Source: a virus (taxonomy: Duplodnaviria; Caudoviricetes). From it: DNA of 64,000 bases. Position 1 is the first letter of the stretch; every line of letters begins with the position of its first letter. The notes under the pieces were generated by a model, which was not told the origin of the DNA, ran no database searches, and saw nothing but the letters and a program-made list of their open reading frames with translations. The stretch is taken from the IMG/VR virus record IMGVR_UViG_3300035673_000002, positions 8,831 to 72,830 of that record; one strand, written 5' to 3'. The translations under genes and the position numbers were made by a program. Below are positions 2,623 to 64,000 of the stretch, piece by piece.

Positions 2623-3351
2623 TTATGGGGGATAGGTGGCCTCGACGGGTACCAATACCACAGGCCCGATGACATCGGCGAATTGCTGCGGCACTGGCAC
2701 GGTCTGGTTTGCCTGCAGCATCGCCTCGATCACCCAGCGATCTTCGTACTGTTGCTGGTCATTAACGAATGGAATTTGCTTGGGATCGTCCGCGTAGAGC
2801 GGCGCCACGGTGCTTGAGAGCGCCTTGAAGAACTGCACCGCGTAATCGTCGCGCATCAGGGTGGAGATCACCTGCGCATTGTCTGCGCTGTTGGGCCCGT
2901 GCACGTCTATCTGCATCACGACCATCGTCTCCTGCATCGCTTGCATGGCGCCGGCGGCCATCGTCTCGCTGGCGACGGTCTGGCCGGGCAGGATGCCGTA
3001 GGTGCCCGCTCCGCCTGGCGGTCCGGAAATCTGCGAGGCGATGACGGTGCCCGCGGTGATGCCGGCGCCGAACAGGTTTCGGCCGACTTGGATGGTACCG
3101 AGCGCGACGGCACTGACGGTCATCGTGGTGCCGGCGATCGACGCGGTGAAGGCGGCATCGTCATAGGTGTCGATGTTGGTCGCGATCCGCCCGCGCCTGC
3201 TCGGCGTCATCATGACGAAATCTATGGCCGCAGGCTCCGACACTCGATTGTCCTGGCCTCCGATCACCTCGACGCCGCTCGGCAGGATGCTGAGCAGGAA
3301 CGAGCGCAGCACCGCGTCGATCGCGTCTTCGTTGGGAGTTGGCGCAGTCAT
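2623..3351 (-). CDS. Neck/tail terminator protein with inserted module
   Basis: GQDNRV.EP, QIDVHGP.S.DNA, YADDPKQ.PF.N.QQQYEDRW motifs; position before sheath. Confidence 0.75.
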   Translation of the reverse strand: MTAPTPNEDAIDAVLRSFLLSILPSGVEVIGGQDNRVSEPAAIDFVMMTPSRRGRIATNIDTYDDAAFTASIAGTTMTVSAVALGTIQVGRNLFGAGITAGTVIASQISGPPGGAGTYGILPGQTVASETMAAGAMQAMQETMVVMQIDVHGPNSADNAQVISTLMRDDYAVQFFKALSSTVAPLYADDPKQIPFVNDQQQYEDRWVIEAMLQANQTVPVPQQFADVIGPVVLVPVEATYPP

Positions 3352-6089
3352 GCTGCCATGTCCAGGAAGGCCGGCGTGTTGTCATTGGCCGCCGGCTCGA
3401 GGTCGCGCTTGAGAAGATACGGCGTCGAGATCGCCTGCTCGAGCGAATTCGGGATGCGCGTGGTGAGCCACAGCGCTGCGCTGATGATGTAGCCGTTCCA
3501 GAACTGCGTTGCGTTCGCGAGCGCTCCGAGGTGGAACGTGGTCACGACAGGCGTCGCCGCCGCGGCCGTGGCGTTGTTCGCGCCATTGAAATAGGCGGAT
3601 TGATCTGACGCAGCCGTGGCTGCGACGATCTTTCCGTTTGCGTTTTGCGCCCACACCGCATTCGGCTGGAAGCCGGAGAACGATCCTCCATTGACTATTC
3701 CCGCCTGCGCCAGACCGATATCGAGCGGCCGGAACAGCACCAGACGGTTTGTATTGGAGGTGTCATCGATCTGGGCAGCGGTTTGGGTGATGCCGTAGGT
3801 CACCGGCGCATTCGGCCTTCCATTGATGAACACCGAGTAGGCGCTCCCGAACGAGAACGTGCCCGTCACCACATCGCCCGGACGCGCCACTGCCGCATTC
3901 GTCGTGCGGATGGGCGAGCTTGCATAGCCGGTGTTCTTGCCGGACGTCCAGGGGCCAACATAGTAGCGATAGGTCACGGTCGGCGTGCCCGAGTAGACGT
4001 GCCGCACGCGCACGAAGGCTTGCGTCGTGAGTGCTGGCGCGACCGCCTGGACCTGGTAGAGCGTCAGCGCACCGGCAGCTTTGTTGATCGCGGTCGAGGT
4101 TCGACTGATCTCGACGTTGCTCGAGTTCCCGAAAAGGACCTCGAGGAAGACGGCGGTGAAGCCCGCATCGTCGGTGACGGTTTGATAGTAGGCTGTAGCA
4201 ACCACCACATCGCCGGGGGCAACGGGCGTGACGCTCGCACCTCCAAACGACGCCTGCGGATTGATATCGTATTCCGTTCCCGCCGGCAGTGCGCCGCCGG
4301 CGAGCGACACGTCGAGCACGTTCTGACCGCTGATCGTTGGAAGCGCCAGCGTGCGCGTCTCGGTCCCGACGTTGCTCGAAGCCCACGATGCACCGCCCAC
4401 GAACGGCAGTGTGCCGGGCGATCCCGCAACGGCTCCGGCGACAGTCGGAGCGCCGAGAAGCTGGGACGTGACGCCCGCCTCGATCTGCGGCCAACCGAGC
4501 CGCACGATGATGAAGGTATTGGTCGTTGCTGATGGCTGGACGAAGAACACAGGCCGCGTCGTCGCGACGGTCGCGTCGGTGATGGTCGGCGTGAAGACCA
4601 TCCGGTTCGCACCGATGCCCGCCGCGCTGCCGCTGGCGACTTGGTTCGCATTTCGATAGGTGCCGATGAACGCCGGGCCGGACGCGAAGCTATCCACTCC
4701 GTTGTAGACGGACGCGATATTGGTGGCGGTGCCGAGGGTGCGCCAGAACACGCTCGTCGCCACGATCCCATTGAGAGCGGTCGCAAACTGCCCGCCCGCT
4801 TCGAAGTGAACCCCCTGCTCGGCGGCGGCCGTCGCAAGACCGAAGAAGCACAGATCAAAATACTCGACGCCGTTCTCCGTTCCGTTGCTGACAACTTGGA
4901 TGCCGGTGCCAGTATTGTTGTTGAACACATCTTGGTTTGTGGGCAGTTGTCCGGCGTCCTGCACCGAGACCCTGGTCAGCGTGACGGCTGTGCTCGCGGT
5001 CGAGTTCACGAATGAGATAAAGCTCGTCGTCGATCCAGCCACGAACTGGAAGCGCTTTCCGATCCCCATTCCGGAACTGACATTGAGCAGCGTGCTCCCG
5101 GCAACCGCCGTTCCGACGCGCACCGTGACGGACGTGCCGCCACTGGCGTCGATTGAAAGGTTGTAAGTGTGGCCAGCAATCGTCGTGAGCGCCGTCGTGC
5201 CCTGGAAGTTCGCCGCGTTGCCACTGCCATCCGCCGTGAGGACCACGTTCGGATTGGAGTAGGTCACGGTCGATGTGCCGCCCACTATGTTCCACTGCCA
5301 TCCGTTCTGCGGCGTGTTCTGCGAGGCGTTGATCGGGCTCGAAACAAAGTTGCCGTTCGTCACCAACTCGGCAATGACCGAGGTGCCCTGGAGGATAACC
5401 GGGCTGGCAGTGTTGCGCCCGAAGCGGAGCCATGTCGTCGCGCCCGAGGCGGTGAACTGCAATCGAAAGAAATTGGCTCCGCTGGTGTTGAGCAGATCGT
5501 GAGCGCCTTGAGTGGTGCCAACCTCGACATTGACGTTTGCGCCCGAGGTAAATCCGCTGACGTTGTAGGTCGCGCCAGGAGCAGTGACCATCGACTGCTC
5601 GGCGAAGGCCTCGTTGGTACCGTCTCCGGTCAGCGTCAGTTGCGCCGCCCCGAAGACGACGGTGCCGGTGCCACCGCTCAGACCTGTGGTCCATGTGCTG
5701 GTGTCGTAGAATAAGCCGTTGGCGATCAACGTAGGCGCGACGACGATCCCCTGCGCCGAGTTGTTGCGGATGCCGTTGGTGGCGGGCTGCTCGATCAGCG
5801 CGCCTTTATTCGTGTAGCAGAGCGTGTTCGACGGGACCTGACCCCAATTTCCCGCGGTGTCATCGCAGGCCTTTGGCAGCGCGCGGACGGTGGTCAGCGG
5901 GCAATTGAAAAGCTGCCCGGTCGAGAAGAAGCATCCGACCGACGCGCTCTGGAAACCACTCGGCAAGCGGTTGGCTCCGCCGAGGATCGCCACGCCCTGG
6001 GTCTGCGGCTGGACCGGCTGCGCGATCGCTCCGCTCGCCAGGGCGATGGCGAGGAAGGCCGCAAACCATGAGCGCATGAAGGAGCGCAT
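3348..6089 (-). CDS. Large fibre/spike-like protein: signal peptide, head-spike-fibre-like N-domain, two carbohydrate-binding-like repeats, LamG-like C-domain, ANDN C-terminal motif
   Basis: N-term WFAAFLAIALASGAIA|Q; GALIEQPATN; two L..NG.F-initiated repeats; TT.AAVAR..D; beta-rich T/G/S/N composition; alternative start 6077. Confidence 0.65.
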   Translation of the reverse strand: MRSFMRSWFAAFLAIALASGAIAQPVQPQTQGVAILGGANRLPSGFQSASVGCFFSTGQLFNCPLTTVRALPKACDDTAGNWGQVPSNTLCYTNKGALIEQPATNGIRNNSAQGIVVAPTLIANGLFYDTSTWTTGLSGGTGTVVFGAAQLTLTGDGTNEAFAEQSMVTAPGATYNVSGFTSGANVNVEVGTTQGAHDLLNTSGANFFRLQFTASGATTWLRFGRNTASPVILQGTSVIAELVTNGNFVSSPINASQNTPQNGWQWNIVGGTSTVTYSNPNVVLTADGSGNAANFQGTTALTTIAGHTYNLSIDASGGTSVTVRVGTAVAGSTLLNVSSGMGIGKRFQFVAGSTTSFISFVNSTASTAVTLTRVSVQDAGQLPTNQDVFNNNTGTGIQVVSNGTENGVEYFDLCFFGLATAAAEQGVHFEAGGQFATALNGIVATSVFWRTLGTATNIASVYNGVDSFASGPAFIGTYRNANQVASGSAAGIGANRMVFTPTITDATVATTRPVFFVQPSATTNTFIIVRLGWPQIEAGVTSQLLGAPTVAGAVAGSPGTLPFVGGASWASSNVGTETRTLALPTISGQNVLDVSLAGGALPAGTEYDINPQASFGGASVTPVAPGDVVVATAYYQTVTDDAGFTAVFLEVLFGNSSNVEISRTSTAINKAAGALTLYQVQAVAPALTTQAFVRVRHVYSGTPTVTYRYYVGPWTSGKNTGYASSPIRTTNAAVARPGDVVTGTFSFGSAYSVFINGRPNAPVTYGITQTAAQIDDTSNTNRLVLFRPLDIGLAQAGIVNGGSFSGFQPNAVWAQNANGKIVAATAASDQSAYFNGANNATAAAATPVVTTFHLGALANATQFWNGYIISAALWLTTRIPNSLEQAISTPYLLKRDLEPAANDNTPAFLDMAA

Positions 6090-6096
6090 GCTGGCG

Positions 6097-6675
6097 CTAA
6101 TTCCGCAGGAGGCCGAAGCCGACCGAGATGTCGGTTGCGGCGGTGAAGGTGGGAGTTGCTCGCGTCACGAGGCAGGCGAACATAGTCGTGATGTTTATCA
6201 GCGCGTAGGGCATCGCCAGGTTAAGCGCCTGGCCGATCGATGGCGTGCCGAGCGACGTCCAATCCGTGATGTGGACGACGCCGCGGACCTTGTCGAAGTC
6301 GGCGGCGGAGACGGCGATCGCGGTCTTGTCTGTGCATGTGGTCGTGGTCGGGTTGGCGTTGAAAAGCACGAGGTCCATTTGCGTCGTCTGCAGCGATTTC
6401 GAATTCACGAACACCGATTGCAGCAGACCGCTCGTGGCCGGCGCTCCGGCGTAGGTACCGAGCGCGCGCGCCGCTCCTGCGAGCGTCATGAGGCCGCCGA
6501 CCGCGTTGCCGCTGGCGTAGGCCGATCCTGCCGTGACGGTCTGCGGGATCTGCAGCGGGATTTGATTGCCGCCGACTTCGCCGATGTGAAAATCACCTTG
6601 CGCTGCGGCCGGTGCGATGGCCGCGAGCAGCCAGACAGCAGCTGCCACGAGAAATTTCGTCATCATGGGCGTCAT
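6097..6675 (-). CDS. Signal-peptide-bearing jelly-roll-like virion accessory protein (spike-base-like)
   Basis: [19 protein letters not shown]|QG; [10 protein letters not shown] and LDLVLF..NP-type motifs; lies among neck genes. Confidence 0.5.
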
Positions 6676-14856: not shown

Positions 14857-15204
14857 TCAGTCCTCGGCCGCGCCAATGACAAGCTCGAGGTCGCCCTTCG
14901 TGGCCGCCGGTGGGACGCGCTTGAGTTCCGCGGCGAGGCTCGTCTGCTCCTGTACCGTGAGTGGCGCCAGCTCGGCCGCGCGCGCCGGCGCCGGCATCAG
15001 GAGCGCATAGGCGAGCGCTACAACGAGCAGCGCATGGAGCCCGAGTCGGCCGATGCCGCCGGCCAGTTGGGCGGCGAGGAAGAACGCCAGCGCGAGCCAC
15101 CCGAAATGCCAACGGCCGTAGATCGGGCCGGGTACGAAGGATGCGATGCAGGCGAAGACGAACGCGAAAACGAGCAGCACGAGGCTGATGTTCACGGTGT
15201 TCAC
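14857..15204 (-). CDS. Small membrane protein (2-3 TM helices)
   Basis: GTG start overlapping upstream stop with GAAGGA RBS; hydrophobic LVLLVFAFVFACIASF and WHFGWLALAFFLAA. Confidence 0.6.
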   Translation of the reverse strand: MNTVNISLVLLVFAFVFACIASFVPGPIYGRWHFGWLALAFFLAAQLAGGIGRLGLHALLVVALAYALLMPAPARAAELAPLTVQEQTSLAAELKRVPPAATKGDLELVIGAAED

Positions 15205-15542
15205 TCCTTCGGTTTCGGTGCCGGCAGCGGTACCGACTCCGCGGGCTTGGCAGCCTCGTCTGCGTCGGTCTTGGCCTTTGCTGCGGCCGCTGCCGCTGCG
15301 ATCGCCCGGCCTTCTGCGCCGTCGAGCCAATCGATGACCTTGCGGGAGAACATGTGCGGTTGCTGCTCGAGATATTGGCGCAGCGCCATATAGTCGGCTT
15401 CGCTCACCGTGAACGGTACGTAGGCCTGGGGCGCCGTCGGCGGTGGGGGCCCTGCCGGCGGCGCCTGGGCGGCCGCGGTCGAGATGGAGATCGCGGCAAC
15501 GATCGCGGTGGCAAGCGCCGGTCCCTTAAGCGAAAATGTCAT
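15201..15542 (-). CDS. Signal-peptide-bearing small protein
   Basis: KGPALATAIVAAISISTAAA|QAPP, then Pro-rich linker and small helical domain. Confidence 0.6.
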   Translation of the reverse strand: MTFSLKGPALATAIVAAISISTAAAQAPPAGPPPPTAPQAYVPFTVSEADYMALRQYLEQQPHMFSRKVIDWLDGAEGRAIAAAAAAAKAKTDADEAAKPAESVPLPAPKPKE

Positions 15543-59738: not shown

Positions 59739-60785
59739 TTACACGAATTCCCAATAATCAAGTTTGATGGTGCGTTGCTCGCGGGGTCCGGGGGCCCGCA
59801 GTGCGTCCATTGTCGCCGGGGTGAGATCGATGCCCGCCTGGTTTCCATGGCGCAGGCGCTCGGCGCGCGGGCGCTGGGCCGTCTTCCAGTAGGGATCGTC
59901 GGTGTACCAGGGGCCCTTGTCGACGATGGGGGCAATCACGGCCTTGCCCTGCCAGACCAGGCGCACCAATGGGCGAGCTCCCGGGAAGGCCGCGGGCAGC
60001 GATACCCCGAGCGCGTTGTCGTCCACCCACCCGCCGTAGGCGCTGCGCTGGTGCTCGCTCGGGCCGCCGAATTCGGTGGCGATGATCAGCTTCATGGACG
60101 GCGTTGTCGGTTGCGGCGCCGGATCGATTGCCGGCGGCGGCGTTGCCGGCTCGTGCGTGACATCGTTCGCCCACTCCGCGCGCAGCTGCTCGTCACTCGC
60201 TTCGTAGGAGCTTATGTCGAGGCCGCCGTCGATCGAGATGCCGGGGACGCTATGCGGCTTGGGCCCGATGCCGTCGCCGGTGAACTGCCACAGCCATGGC
60301 GCCTTCCATGATCGCTGCACCGTCCACTTCGATGCGTACTGTGCCAGCCAGAGCCGTCGCTCTGACCAGAACGGGACGAAGCGATCGCCGAGCTTTTCCT
60401 TGATCGTGTTGCCGCTGTAGAGCACGACCTTGCGGCCGATCTTGCTCTCGACGTGCAGGATGAATTCCTGGCACTCGAGCGGCTCGACATTGCCGACTTC
60501 GTAATCGAGCGAGATCAGCGTGCTGTCGGTGGGCCTGGCGCATCGAAGGAAAAAATCGGCCTGCGCTTCCATGTTGGAGCTCGGCCGGATGAAATGGTAC
60601 GCGCCATTGAGCAATCCTGCCGCGAGGATCTTCGGCACGCGATCGGCATAGCGATCGTCCACGCGCGCGGTGCCTTCGCTCGACTTCTGGATCACGCCCA
60701 CGATGCCGGCTCTCCGGACGGCCTGGAAGCCGTCGCCAACCACGGCGTCGTAATGCGAGACGTCGATGACCTTCGGATTGATCAT
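59739..60785 (-). CDS. Endolysin: GH25 muramidase + Pro linker + RlpA-like double-psi barrel
   Basis: VIDVSHY, GAYHF, LDYE, LWLAQY, WQFT, D.S.Y; C-domain IVDKGPW and GIDLTPA. Confidence 0.82.
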   Translation of the reverse strand: MINPKVIDVSHYDAVVGDGFQAVRRAGIVGVIQKSSEGTARVDDRYADRVPKILAAGLLNGAYHFIRPSSNMEAQADFFLRCARPTDSTLISLDYEVGNVEPLECQEFILHVESKIGRKVVLYSGNTIKEKLGDRFVPFWSERRLWLAQYASKWTVQRSWKAPWLWQFTGDGIGPKPHSVPGISIDGGLDISSYEASDEQLRAEWANDVTHEPATPPPAIDPAPQPTTPSMKLIIATEFGGPSEHQRSAYGGWVDDNALGVSLPAAFPGARPLVRLVWQGKAVIAPIVDKGPWYTDDPYWKTAQRPRAERLRHGNQAGIDLTPATMDALRAPGPREQRTIKLDYWEFV

Positions 60786-60798
60786 TGCTGTTTCCCTC

Positions 60799-61395
60799 TT
60801 ACGGCAGCGTCGGGTTCGGGTTCGGCGCGAGCCAGCGAAAGCCGATGAAAATCCAATCCATCGTTTGCGAAGAGCCGAGCTTGCATCCGAGCAGATCGCC
60901 GGCGTCGCGGTCCAGCAGGATCGGCGGGTCTATCTTGTGATCGTCGCGGATGGACGCGCCGGAATAGAGTTGGCTGAAAAGCTGGATCACATTGACAAAG
61001 TTCGATCCTATCTCCCGGCCATTGGGCGTCCCGGTGTGAAAGAACGCCCCGCCGGGATCAACCCAGCACGAGAGCTCGTTGGAGCCGACCGCTGCTGACG
61101 ATCCGTACGCAACGAGGATGCGACTGAGGTACGCCTTGCGCGGGAAGGTCGCCGGAAGATGCATCGCGCGCTGCTGCAAGCCTGGTGCCGGCGTGAACGG
61201 GATTGTCGCCGGATCCTGGTCGCCGATCCATTGCCAGGCGCCTGCGGGGTAAGCAGCATAAGCGCCCGTCTCCTGATCCTGACCCCAGACGCGCGGGATC
61301 CAGTAGTACTGCTGCTGGACGTATAGCACCTGCGCGATCGCACAGGCCGCTGAGATTAAAAGCGCGGTGATTGCAACACTGATTATTTTCGTCAT
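60799..61395 (-). CDS. Signal-peptide-bearing beta-sandwich protein
   Basis: TKIISVAITALLISAACAIA|QV; ATGA coupling to the fibre gene. Confidence 0.6.
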   Translation of the reverse strand: MTKIISVAITALLISAACAIAQVLYVQQQYYWIPRVWGQDQETGAYAAYPAGAWQWIGDQDPATIPFTPAPGLQQRAMHLPATFPRKAYLSRILVAYGSSAAVGSNELSCWVDPGGAFFHTGTPNGREIGSNFVNVIQLFSQLYSGASIRDDHKIDPPILLDRDAGDLLGCKLGSSQTMDWIFIGFRWLAPNPNPTLP

Positions 61396-63308
61396 GCCAC
61401 GGCATCCATGAACATCGGGGTGTTGTCGTTCGCTGCGGGATCGAGGTCGCGTCGGAGTAGCCAAGTGCCATAGTGCTCGATGATGAAGAGCCGGCCACCG
61501 CCGCCAGTGCCTCCAGCGAATGATGCTCCAGCTGTACCCGCTGTTCCGGCCGCTCCCGCCACGTAGGTGAAGGTTTGGCTAGGGCTCGGGTTGAGGATGA
61601 TGAAGTAGCACGTTGCACCTGCGCCGCCGCCCGGACCAGTTGAAGCTGCGCCACCGACTCCGCCACCCTGGCCACCGCTGCCGGAGTTTGCCGCTGCGGC
61701 GGACCCAGCAGCGTTGAACGTCTTGCCGCCAGCGCCACCGAGAGACGACGCGCCTCCCATCGCGCCACCCGCGCTCGCGCTCGACGTCTGGCTGGAACCA
61801 CCTTCGCCACCGGCCACCGACCAGTTGCAGGCGGTGCTGCCGGATATGGCACCGCCACTACCACCGGCACCTGTCGTCCAGTTGCCTCCCGTGCCGCCGT
61901 TGGCGTTGTAGACAGGCGTCGTGCACGCTGCGCCTGACGTGTTCCAGCACGAATCTCCACCGGTCCCGCCTGCGCCCGGGGCTGCTCCACTTCCGCTGCC
62001 ACCACCACCACCACCGACGATCCATCCTTCTAGCCAGAGGACGTTGGCGGGTGTCGTGTACGTGCCGCTGGCGTTGGCGGCGAAGCCTCCTGAGTGGCTG
62101 GTCAGTGTGACAAGGCTTGTGGTCGGACCCGTACGCCGAGCGGGGGTAAGCCCAATCGCACCCAACGCGATTTCGATCCCGTTGCCAGGAGCCGTGCAGC
62201 TCGGGACACCAGCGGCGCTCGTCACATAGGCGCAGTTGTTGCCTTTCGTCACCTCGCCGAGCACGCCACCGTTATCGTAGAGCAGTTGGTTGGTCACGCC
62301 GCTGGTGATGGTCGTAGTCCCCACTACGACCGAGGTCGCTGCCGTCGTGACCGTGCACGAGCCGCCGAGCGGGCAACTTGTCGCGTTGATCGTGGTCGCG
62401 GCCTGGGTGCCGGCGATGTAGAGCGGGCCGGTGACGTTGAGCGTGCCCGCGCCCTTGTCGCCTCCGGTTACGCCTGGCGGCATCGTCACGCCGCCGCTCT
62501 GTTCCCATCGCATCGTTGCGGCTAACGTGGTCCCACCGTTCGCGGTGGTTCCGACTTCGCAGTACGTGCCTTGCTTGGGCAGCGATGTCCACGTCTCCGC
62601 AGCGAAGCACCGATAGGTGCCGCTCGGACCGACATAGGCTGCGCCGTTGTAGCCGTAGGAATTATAACCGCCGATCTGCGTATTCGCGGTCAGCGCCGTC
62701 GGGACCGCGGCCGTGCCTCCAGCGGCTATGCTTGTGAAGAATGCTTGTGCGCCGAACGCGCTGACTTCGATGCGCGCTGGCGTGGCGTTCGCGCCGCCGA
62801 CGCGCAACCCGGTCCCGGTCTGCGCCGCCGGCAAAGCTGCGGCATTGAACCTGACGGTCTGCGCTGCAGTGAAAGTGTTCGCGATCGAGAAATCGAACGC
62901 GTAGGTCACGACGCCGGCCGGGAAGGTTACGGCGATAGGCGACGTCGCGGCGAAGCTGGAACCACCGCCACCGGTGAGCGGGCCGACGTTGACCCCATTG
63001 ATGCGGACGAAAAGGCCGGTCGTTGTCGTCCACACATCGCCATCGATTGGCGTGGTGGGGGCGGCGCCGGATGGGATGCTGAAGCCAGCCGATGTCGCTG
63101 ACGATCTCACCGTGACCAGCGGTCCGGTCATTACTCCGCCGGCGGAATTGAGCGGGGTGAAGCCCAGCACATCCTGCTTGGCAGCAAAATATCCGTTCCA
63201 CTGTCCTGCGGTTGGGATCTGCCCCCTGATGAGGTTCGGGCTCGACTGCGCCAACGCGGAAACGGCCGACGCGGCGAGCGCGACGACGGCGGCGAAGAAA
63301 TGCCTCAT
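61392..63308 (-). CDS. Tail-fibre-like protein with signal peptide, Gly-rich C-domain and ANDN C-terminal motif
   Basis: RHFFAAVVALAASAVSALA|QSSP; LGFTPLN.AG..MTG.L; WIVGGGGGG Gly-rich fibre domain; GGGAGA RBS. Confidence 0.75.
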   Translation of the reverse strand: MRHFFAAVVALAASAVSALAQSSPNLIRGQIPTAGQWNGYFAAKQDVLGFTPLNSAGGVMTGPLVTVRSSATSAGFSIPSGAAPTTPIDGDVWTTTTGLFVRINGVNVGPLTGGGGSSFAATSPIAVTFPAGVVTYAFDFSIANTFTAAQTVRFNAAALPAAQTGTGLRVGGANATPARIEVSAFGAQAFFTSIAAGGTAAVPTALTANTQIGGYNSYGYNGAAYVGPSGTYRCFAAETWTSLPKQGTYCEVGTTANGGTTLAATMRWEQSGGVTMPPGVTGGDKGAGTLNVTGPLYIAGTQAATTINATSCPLGGSCTVTTAATSVVVGTTTITSGVTNQLLYDNGGVLGEVTKGNNCAYVTSAAGVPSCTAPGNGIEIALGAIGLTPARRTGPTTSLVTLTSHSGGFAANASGTYTTPANVLWLEGWIVGGGGGGSGSGAAPGAGGTGGDSCWNTSGAACTTPVYNANGGTGGNWTTGAGGSGGAISGSTACNWSVAGGEGGSSQTSSASAGGAMGGASSLGGAGGKTFNAAGSAAAANSGSGGQGGGVGGAASTGPGGGAGATCYFIILNPSPSQTFTYVAGAAGTAGTAGASFAGGTGGGGRLFIIEHYGTWLLRRDLDPAANDNTPMFMDAVA

Positions 63309-63329
63309 GTTCGTCTCCCTGATCACTTG

Positions 63330-63617
63330 TCAACCCGGTGGCAGCGGGCACACCTTGCGCTCGCGGAGCATCCACACGTTCTTCTGGCCCCACGGATTGG
63401 TGATGAGCGAGCAGTAGCTTGGGACCGGACTTCGGTTGCAGTCCTGAATGTAGATCGTCTGCGTGCGGGTGCAGCCACTGTCGTCTACGCAAACCCTGTC
63501 GTTAGTGCAGGATGGTCGCCCGTCGCCGCACGTCTCCGCAGGCGGCGTATTGCAAGATGGAGCCGACTCCGCGAGCGCCGGGCTCGACAACAGCAGGAAC
63601 AGAAGCAATACGCGCAT
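63330..63617 (-). CDS. Secreted 8-Cys mini-protein
   Basis: MRVLLLFLLLSSPALA|ES; 8 Cys in 79 mature residues. Confidence 0.65.
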   Translation of the reverse strand: MRVLLLFLLLSSPALAESAPSCNTPPAETCGDGRPSCTNDRVCVDDSGCTRTQTIYIQDCNRSPVPSYCSLITNPWGQKNVWMLRERKVCPLPPG

Positions 63618-63633
63618 TGGGGAATTTTTCCTT

Positions 63634-64000
63634 TTATGGGGGATTTGCTTGACAGCCAGTGGCAGCCGAGCCCGCCGTCAGCGAGACTGGATAAGTTGTC
63701 GTGAGTGAGATGACGGCGTTCGTGCCGCAGGCGTATTTCGCCCCTGAAGGGTTGGCGCCCGACCAGGTCACAGGTCCGGAGATCACGCCCGCACCGCTGG
63801 CGTTGAAAAAGTTGGTAAAGCCTCCGGTGATGACGTTGATGGTCACGGCTAGATCGGCGTTCGCGCTGTTGGCGGTCACGAACGCCGAACCAGCCGATCC
63901 GTTGATAATAGTAGTCCCGGTGATGTTCATCTTGCATCGTTCGGCCATCGAGTACGGGAAGCCGTTGCCGATAGAGTTGAACTGCATTGCGGATACGTCG
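63634..64000 (-). CDS. C-terminal part of a tail fibre/spike-like protein (runs off the window)
   Basis: N/G/T/S-rich beta-helix-like sequence ending SLTAGSAATGCQANPP. Confidence 0.55.
   Translation of the reverse strand, partial: DVSAMQFNSIGNGFPYSMAERCKMNITGTTIINGSAGSAFVTANSANADLAVTINVITGGFTNFFNASGAGVISGPVTWSGANPSGAKYACGTNAVISLTTTYPVSLTAGSAATGCQANPP

Follow-up and report, generated by a model that had tools for sequence, protein, structure and literature searches.

The SsrA (tmRNA) degradation tag of Alphaproteobacteria is added co-translationally to the extreme C-terminus of proteins and is read by ClpXP with SspB-alpha, by FtsH and, in the periplasm, by the PDZ-bearing tail-specific protease Prc/Tsp, which degrades SsrA-tagged proteins exported via Sec (PMC6686036). 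Genetically encoded ssrA-like C-terminal tags are reported on a few phage regulators, namely the repressor and integrase of integration-dependent-immunity mycobacteriophages (PMC9635641). Other C-terminal elements serve different ends. Sorting signals such as LPXTG and PEP-CTERM combine an N-terminal Sec leader with a C-terminal motif, a transmembrane helix and a basic cluster on diverse surface proteins, whereas the S74 intramolecular chaperone (PF13884, an auto-cleaving domain of about 100-150 aa) and the T4 fibritin foldon, an autonomous β-hairpin fold that forms a trimer, are C-terminal add-ons of phage fibres. Arrest peptides such as SecM, VemP or ApdP act in the ribosome exit tunnel, and the Bdellovibrio MAT (mosaic adhesive trimer) fibres are surface-displayed trimers with a signal peptide (PMC10769870). 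Here, we compared with these systems a 23-residue C-terminal tail shared by two proteins of a soil phage with a circular genome of 72,830 bp (IMGVR_UViG_3300035673_000002), of which the window, a stretch of 64,000 nucleotides, was analyzed. The features concerned are as follows, with positions of the window.

3348..6089, minus strand: carrier 1 (P0001, 913 aa), a protein with a predicted Sec leader, encoded between the head genes and the neck-terminator gene.
6021..6089, minus strand: predicted Sec signal peptide of P0001 (residues 1-23, AIA followed by QP).
3393..3419, minus strand: proximal 9 residues of tail copy 1 (YLLKRDLEP).
3351..3392, minus strand: distal 14 residues of tail copy 1 (AANDNTPAFLDMAA), the SsrA-tag-like half.
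61392..63308, minus strand: carrier 2 (P0003, 638 aa; the ORF is open from GTG at 63326), a fibre-like protein with a predicted Sec leader, between the baseplate/fibre genes and the lysis genes.
63249..63308, minus strand: predicted Sec signal peptide of P0003 (residues 1-20, ALA followed by QS).
61437..61463, minus strand: proximal 9 residues of tail copy 2 (WLLRRDLDP).
61395..61436, minus strand: distal 14 residues of tail copy 2 (AANDNTPMFMDAVA), the SsrA-tag-like half, modeled as disordered.

The initial annotation had reported one C-terminal motif on two otherwise unrelated signal-peptide fibre proteins, and this observation was confirmed. P0001 ends with YLLKRDLEPAANDNTPAFLDMAA (tail 3351-3419, stop 3348-3350) and P0002/P0003 ends with WLLRRDLDPAANDNTPMFMDAVA (tail 61395-61463, stop 61392-61394). 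When the two proteins were compared by BLASTP, the tail was the only significant alignment (16/23 identical, E 3e-8), and the next best had E 0.006. A six-frame scan of the whole 72,830-bp genome found only these two copies. Of the 16 identical residues, 7 use different synonymous codons, and over 31 distinct tails from other phages, codon positions 1/2/3 differ in 18%/18%/56% of pairs, so selection acts on the peptide. Both proteins begin with a Sec-type leader, MRSFMRSWFAAFLAIALASGAIA followed by QP and MRHFFAAVVALAASAVSALA followed by QS, respectively. These leaders were read from the sequence, and those of other carriers were found by a crude scan rather than a dedicated predictor. P0001 had no hit in Pfam, NCBIfam or PHROGs; its downstream gene (2623-3351) is Phage_tail_terminator_9, and a GH25 muramidase lies at 59739-60785 near P0003.

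To determine whether the tail is private to this phage, we built a profile of the two tails, which found 274 protein clusters at E<=1e-3, nearly all matching at the extreme C-terminus. The consensus is [WYF]LL[KRN]RD[LI]DPA[AS]NDN[TSD]P[AM][FW][LM]x[KQ]AA-COOH, and the length was fixed at 23 aa in 138/144 cases. In these 138 tails, L2, L3, R5, D6 and P9 are nearly invariant, N12, D13 and N14 are each present in at least 134, and position 11 is A in 67 and S in 65. The tail is essentially phage-only, since its DNA pattern hit 36 viral contigs but only 5 stretches among 185,579 species genomes, all in metagenome-assembled genomes. In three host genomes, only the prophage copy was present. A provirus with a tail-bearing locus lies in a Xanthobacteraceae genome. 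No Pfam, NCBIfam or PHROGs hit of the carriers or neighbours explains the tail, a PDB sequence search gave only chance matches, the ESM Atlas gave nothing usable, and the searched papers did not describe it; the statement of the initial annotation that no function has been described therefore holds.

In both window proteins, the tail is added after the normal C-terminus of the family. Homologues of P0001 (P0271 and P0272) end with QAMTQ and QAITT, respectively, at the position of P0001 residue ~889. P0003 has 390 homologues, nearly all with a leader plus AQSSPGL, and this family normally ends with IEHYG[ST]; only about 5% of them have the tail, and most homologues of both carriers lack it. The link with Sec-type leaders generalizes, as 88/103 database carriers of at least 300 aa and 13/15 complete carriers in the fetched viral-contig loci have one. 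The fibre designation holds for P0003 at the level of its predicted structure and remains putative for P0001. In the AlphaFold2 model of P0003, a Gly-rich domain (390-615) has pLDDT above 90, and Foldseek matched the model to the MAT fibre tips Bd1334 (8oml, E 1e-5) and Bd2439 and to the T5 L-shaped fibre tip (pb1). P0003 also has ten Cys, mostly in close sequential pairs. Considering the leaders and the resemblance to MAT fibres, the tail might be an envelope sorting or retention signal by which an unknown host system moves or anchors the exported fibre, for example to the outer membrane or cell surface. However, the tail has no transmembrane helix, no basic cluster and no hydrophobic stretch longer than 3 residues, no shared enzyme gene occurs in six phage genomes, and sorting systems have many host substrates whereas no host protein carries the tail in the three host genomes. 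With only the 5 hits among species genomes and the small fraction of P0003 homologues that have it, this reading seems unlikely.

We also considered whether the tail could be a self-association or folding element which, like the foldon or as a handle for a chaperone, nucleates or registers trimerization and might be trimmed afterwards, so that its invariance would come from its own structure rather than from a partner. It sits at the C-terminus of a protein with a predicted fibre-tip fold, where other family members such as P0018 carry an S74 domain, it has two hydrophobic clusters around a Pro-bounded polar loop, it has no conserved partner gene, and it is optional within families. P0001 and P0002 have no Pfam hit, including Peptidase_S74, and the tail is only 23 aa. 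AlphaFold2 gave no fold and no hairpin for the peptide (pLDDT 59), and residues 622-625 and 628-638 had pLDDT below 50 in the P0003 model, although these are models of monomers. This reading, which also seems unlikely, explains neither the resemblance to SsrA tags nor the occurrence of the distal half on DNA methylases, which are not fibre-like (both described below).

The initial annotation suggested that the tail may be a docking peptide that attaches exported fibres to a virion adaptor. Attachment to such an adaptor or to a capsid protein could occur, for example, after lysis mixes periplasm and cytoplasm. Carriers do lie inside structural modules, between head and neck genes, after the baseplate genes, and between the capsid and tail-tube genes of a T7-like contig, and a disordered tail would suit a short linear motif. 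However, the three proposed partner genes (6097..6675, 60799..61395 and 15201..15542) have no homologue in five other tail-bearing phage genomes, and two of them are not paralogues of each other. Clustering of 41 loci and of six whole tail-bearing genomes found no conserved partner, and the six genomes share only endolysin peptidoglycan-binding modules and fibre pieces. A near-invariant peptide across myovirus-like and T7-like phages with unrelated virion proteins is hard to reconcile with a phage-encoded receptor, so docking is not supported and we regard it as improbable. The interpretation in the initial annotation was thus only partly supported: the motif, its peptide-level selection and its place on otherwise unrelated leader-bearing proteins held, and a processing signal, which it listed as an alternative, remains plausible, but it missed the resemblance to SsrA tags.

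Both window genes end with GCATGA and overlap the next start codon, as had been noted. This arrangement, together with a leader, a conserved peptide of tunnel length at a fixed distance from the stop codon and the ribosome as a suitably conserved partner, could suggest a termination pause or arrest peptide that holds the chain until export pulls on it or that regulates the next gene. However, the coupling is not general, as the distance to the next ORF in other loci runs from -23 to more than 300 bases and all three stop codons are used. The downstream genes are varied (terminator, small leader proteins, others) and include no Sec or YidC gene, the tail ends A-A rather than with the Pro or Gly-Pro typical of known arrest sites, and the carriers are large functional proteins rather than small monitoring substrates. 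This possibility is therefore very unlikely.

To see whether the distal half resembles the host tmRNA tag, we compared it with 25 sampled alphaproteobacterial tags, all of which start ANDN and end [LVMA]AA, with 10-13 coded residues plus the tRNA-borne Ala. Both window copies read AANDN and run to the stop codon, and there are 14 residues from the first A to the end. P0001 ends MAA and P0003 ends AVA; across the family, A is at -2 in 109/138 and at -1 in 121/138, but -3 is mostly K, Q or E. Alphaproteobacterial genomes that carry copies have ARAGORN tags ANDNYAPVA[QL]AA, and the copies in the two large chromosomal contigs read NDNAPVGL and NDNSPVCL, with the otherwise rare Val (7/138) that matches the APVA of the host. 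A natural permuted tmRNA on viral contigs encodes a tag ending in AANDNTPFEAMKIAA. AANDNTP is enriched at C-termini in viral contigs (23/105, of which 13 end AA) against 0/30 for the reversed control. The AANDNTP...AA half also ends cytoplasmic N6/N4 and C5 DNA methylases and a Mom-like enzyme, which partly fulfils a condition that the initial annotation had set as refuting its own interpretation, namely that the motif occurs equally on cytoplasmic non-virion proteins.

The tail is encoded in frame in the gene and is therefore a mimic rather than a true tag. ARAGORN and Rfam found no tmRNA gene or RNA element in the window, and capture of host tmRNA DNA including its upstream sequence was rejected because the frame upstream of host tags does not give LLKRDLDP. 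Several points speak against mimicry. The nine proximal residues are equally invariant and have no counterpart in SsrA tags, half of the tails have Ser where tags have Ala, and some tails end KVA or KVG, which, with K or Q at -3, would weaken ClpX or PDZ binding judged from E. coli. The exact host-type tag AANDN[YF]AP was not found at a phage ORF end, as 8 of 9 occurrences are internal and the one near a stop has in-frame stops upstream. One carrier sits in a Terriglobia bin whose tag is ANQQMAYAA, though binning may be wrong. In addition, it is not obvious why a phage would put a degron on abundant late proteins, and the resemblance was noticed after the fact. Resemblances to the FtsZ C-terminal peptide (PAFL...), the colicin TolB box, the dockerin LLKR helix and a DnaK-binding motif were set aside, since they do not fit an exported protein or fit only 4-5 residues.

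Taken together, our preferred but tentative reading (probability about 0.4) is that the tail is a portable, intrinsically disordered C-terminal module, found almost only in uncultured phage or prophage DNA and, where a host can be named, in Alphaproteobacteria, which recombination adds to the natural C-terminus of unrelated late proteins, mostly Sec-exported and fibre-like, and whose distal half imitates the host SsrA tag. In this view, ClpXP with SspB-alpha, or FtsH, would remove copies that fail to be exported, and Prc/CtpA in the periplasm would trim the tail back to the stably folded fibre domain. That no host ORF carries the tail is as expected for a mimic of a signal not encoded in ORFs, and the lack of a conserved phage partner suggests that the reader is probably a conserved host protein. 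The analysis itself establishes the module, its distribution, its add-on nature, peptide-level selection, the link with leaders, predicted disorder, the absence of a conserved phage partner and the resemblance to SsrA tags, whereas binding or cleavage by any host protein, the identity of the reader, and whether the outcome is trimming, quality control or titration of the protease are inferred only. The proximal residues ([WYF]LL[KR]RDLDP) are not explained by this model and may be a second handle for an adaptor or chaperone, or a stop for trimming. A further reading, which is not excluded but seems unlikely, is that phages of soil Alphaproteobacteria use this mobile tag and the host tmRNA-tag surveillance as a compartment sensor for a class of Sec-exported, disulfide-capable, fibre-like proteins encoded in virion modules. 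Copies left in the cytoplasm would be destroyed, while exported copies would be trimmed or held by a PDZ protease and could then act outside the cytoplasm, for example by joining particles at lysis or by masking receptors, with the proximal nine residues as a new adaptor-binding element.

If the tail is read by ClpXP/SspB or Prc, it shows phages using host tag surveillance to control late, extracytoplasmic proteins, and it would give a ready-made degron or processing tag for Alphaproteobacteria. It also flags a puzzling class of proteins, fibres with predicted Sec leaders inside virion operons that may be virion parts, mask receptors or be displayed on the surface, and it is a simple sequence marker for finding such phages in metagenomes. 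Compared with LPXTG and PEP-CTERM signals, which share the leader plus C-terminal motif, the tail lacks a transmembrane helix, a basic tail, a dedicated sortase or exosortase gene and host substrates. The S74 domain and foldon are likewise optional add-ons of fibre proteins, but the tail has 23 residues, no Peptidase_S74 match and no predicted fold. The similarity to MAT fibres concerns the carrier P0003 and not the tail: both have a signal peptide (predicted in P0003), an N-terminal region conserved within their own family and variable tips (trimeric in MAT fibres), and some members carry an S74 domain, but P0003 is encoded in a phage late region and MAT fibres are not reported to have this tail. 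Relative to the SsrA tag, the tail shares the extreme C-terminal position, the A-A-N-D-N start, the hydrophobic middle, a mostly A-A end and the length of 14 residues, but it is gene-encoded, is preceded by nine further conserved residues, has mostly K or Q at position -3 and has S for the second A in half of the cases. The encoded tags of mycobacteriophages are also host-tag-like C-termini in phage genes that set protein stability; those, however, are short tags on cytoplasmic regulators of actinobacterial phages, whereas this one is a strongly conserved, mobile, phage-specific 23-residue module on hundreds of proteins, mostly fibre-like late proteins with predicted Sec leaders, of phages of Alphaproteobacteria.

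To examine the extent of the shared tail, we first analyzed the two proteins that carry it in the 72,830-bp phage contig (65% G+C; the window spans bases 8831-72830).
3348-6089, minus strand: P0001, a protein of 913 aa, ending in YLLKRDLEPAANDNTPAFLDMAA
61392-63308, minus strand: P0002/P0003, a protein of 638 aa from the ATG, ending in WLLRRDLDPAANDNTPMFMDAVA
63485-64000: an ORF that is open at the end of the window
The tail is the only significant similarity between the two proteins (16/23 identical, E 3e-8), and seven of the sixteen identical residues use different codons. No third copy exists in the genome. The tail observed in the initial annotation was thus confirmed. Since the ORF at 63485-64000 is open, and another ORF on the same strand runs off the first base of the contig (L183:1-1100, the first ~1 kb), the former is likely to continue in the latter. 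A database copy of the contig is 72,866 bp, which is 36 bp longer, and the genome is probably circular or circularly permuted. If so, one leader-bearing gene of about 510 aa would lie directly upstream of P0003.

In both proteins, the tail is an addition to the usual C-terminus. P0003 has 390 detected homologues, and nearly all of the 120 that were listed start with a leader followed by AQSSPGL, while many end exactly at ...IEHYG[ST]. In P0003, the 23 residues follow EHYGT directly, whereas only about six of the 120 listed homologues have the tail or a variant of it. In one homologue, P0025, a variant C-terminus reads ...EHYNS LLFVFVAFIPA RRRR AANDNREAATAAA, where a short hydrophobic stretch and an Arg cluster replace LLKRDLDP and are followed by an SsrA-like end. 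Although this is a single case, it could be a membrane-anchored version with the tag on the cytoplasmic side. P0001 has two homologues, which end with ...QAMTQ and ...QAITT at the position of its residue ~889, and P0001 continues from there with the tail.

To determine how widespread the tail is, a profile of the two 30-residue ends was searched against 1.84 billion representative proteins. The search found 274 clusters at E<=1e-3, nearly all matching at the very C-terminus. The length is exactly 23 residues in 138 of 144 tails, and L2, L3, R5, D6, P9, A10, N12, D13, N14 and P16 are present in at least 130 of 138. Position 18 is F or W, position 19 is L or M, and the end is mostly A-A. The carriers are 300-1460 aa, mutually unrelated and without Pfam domains, and in the databases they are known only from metagenomes. 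A degenerate DNA pattern for RD[LI]DPAxNDN hit 36 viral contigs, but only 5 stretches among 185,579 species genomes, all in metagenome-assembled genomes. Two of those lie in large alphaproteobacterial contigs, one of them Xanthobacteraceae, and one lies in a Bradyrhizobium bin. In every locus the motif runs into a stop codon, and three host genomes hold no other copy. Over 31 distinct 69-nt tails, codon positions 1/2/3 differ in 18/18/56% of pairs, and invariant residues use up to five codons. Therefore, selection acts on the peptide.

The carriers lie in late or structural regions of different phage types. In this phage and its relative G005, a carrier is located between the head genes and the neck terminator, and in this phage and G009, another tail-bearing phage, after the baseplate and collar-fibre genes and before the lysin. 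In a Bradyrhizobium-bin contig with a T7-like gene order (L124:1437-8000), a 735-aa leader-plus-tail protein is inserted between the capsid-like gene (plus a 188-aa ORF) and tail tubular proteins A and B. In other tail-bearing phages (G006:48287-49414, G007:43319-49313 and G009:49616-53895; loci L170, L173 and L181), the carrier sits in a run of two to four consecutive leader-bearing proteins next to baseplate or lysis genes, as in this window. A crude scan, rather than a dedicated signal-peptide prediction, found Sec-type leaders on 88 of 103 database carriers of at least 300 aa and on 13 of 15 complete carriers in the loci, and several of the rest look N-terminally truncated. In one large carrier family, in which 13 loci cluster together, a W-[TIV]-H-G motif lies right after the predicted leader; this motif occurs in many carriers, for example P0173, P0188, P0210, P0233, L126 and L153.

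P0003 has ten cysteines, mostly in close sequential pairs, whereas the sheath has one and the terminator and capsid-like proteins have none, which fits an oxidising compartment. The AlphaFold2 model of P0003 has a confident Gly-rich C-terminal domain (pLDDT above 90), which matches Bdellovibrio MAT fibre tips (8oml, E 1e-5) and the T5 L-shaped fibre tip. MAT fibres are signal-peptide-bearing, surface-displayed, phage-like trimers (PMC10769870). In addition, residues 53-103 of P0003 match the tail fibre of Bradyrhizobium phage Paso. The term fibre, which the initial annotation had applied to both carriers, is therefore justified for P0003. P0003 and its homologues (P0004-P0122 among the 390) form a large family of phage or prophage fibre-like proteins with a Sec leader followed by the conserved AQSSPGL region, in place of a virion-attachment domain. 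Their tips are interchangeable, being Gly-rich, S74 or pectate-lyase-like, and the layout parallels that of the MAT fibres.

The initial annotation had suggested that the tail may dock exported fibres to a virion adaptor, or may be a processing or chaperone signal. The selection on the peptide and the link with signal peptides were supported, whereas docking to a conserved virion adaptor was not, and a processing signal remains plausible. The two neighbouring genes that it proposed are not paralogues, and none of its three candidate partner genes has a homologue in five other, mostly complete, tail-bearing phage genomes. Those six genomes share only lysin peptidoglycan-binding modules and fibre pieces. 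The ATGA overlap with the next gene, which had been read as coupling, is not general. A near-invariant peptide on phages with unrelated virion genes points to a conserved host reader, or to a self-contained structure. A virion docking peptide nevertheless remains possible, as do a foldon-like or chaperone-handle element, an envelope sorting signal and a ribosome-tunnel pause peptide.

We next compared the distal 14 residues, A-[AS]-N-D-N-[TSD]-P-[AM]-[FW]-[LM]-x-[KQ]-A-A, with alphaproteobacterial SsrA tags. ARAGORN gave ANDNYAPVAQAA or ANDNYAPVALAA for the three alphaproteobacterial genomes that carry copies. Twenty-five tags sampled across the class all start ANDN and end [LVMA]AA, with 10-13 coded residues plus the Ala brought by the tmRNA; none of those loci comes from the unpublished genome G049, and only the 149/151 tally includes it. 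Permuted (alpha-type) tmRNA genes lie on two viral contigs (L003:6854-7266 and L015:4671-5083) and encode ...AANDNTPFEAMKIAA, the tag being read by ARAGORN as AAKAANDNTPFEAMKIAA, so ANDNTP is a natural tag start in some lineage. The copies in the two large chromosomal contigs deviate from the consensus towards the host tag (NDNAPVGL and NDNSPVCL against host APVA), and Val at that position occurs in only 7 of 138 tails, although with two cases this is only a hint.

AANDNTP is itself enriched at protein ends in viral contigs. Of 105 non-redundant occurrences, 23 lie within 16 codons of a stop with an open frame upstream, and 13 of these end AA, whereas the reversed control scored 0 of 30. In the IMG/VR loci L011, L014, L019, L021, L025, L029, L041, L044, L052, L059, L065, L079, L083 and L113, unrelated phage proteins end in AANDNTP, 3-8 residues and a terminal AA, just after their domains. 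They include N6/N4 and C5 DNA methylases, a Mom-like enzyme and a 420-450-aa family (...RVRVA...), among other proteins. These shorter tails lack LLKRDLDP, and the proteins show no evident leader on inspection of their N-termini. They look like encoded SsrA-type degrons on cytoplasmic phage enzymes. The distal half therefore also occurs on cytoplasmic enzymes, as a degron would. The 23-residue tail was modelled as disordered, both alone and on P0003.

Prc/Tsp is the established reader of SsrA-tagged proteins that went through Sec (PMC6686036). In the cytoplasm, ClpXP with SspB, ClpAP, Lon and FtsH read such proteins. The best-supported reading, to which we assign a probability of about 0.4, is that the module gives the carrier's C-terminus to this machinery, whereby unexported copies would be removed and exported copies would be trimmed back to the folded tip. 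While the added tail, its distribution, the selection on the peptide, its association with predicted leaders, the predicted disorder, the lack of a conserved phage partner and the resemblance to SsrA tags come from the analysis itself, the host reader, its binding and any degradation or trimming are inferred. This reading has weak points, since the nine proximal residues are equally conserved and unexplained by it, position -3 is K or Q in most tails, and position 2 of the tag half is Ser in about half of the tails. Furthermore, exact host-type tags are absent from phage protein ends, the benefit to the phage is unclear, and one carrier sits in a Terriglobia bin whose tag is ANQQMAYAA.

In the literature searched, no paper contained the motif strings, and no family library or solved structure covered the tail. 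The nearest known kind is the encoded ssrA-like tags on phage regulators, compared with which the present tail is a longer, mobile, phage-specific variant tied to exported fibre-like proteins.
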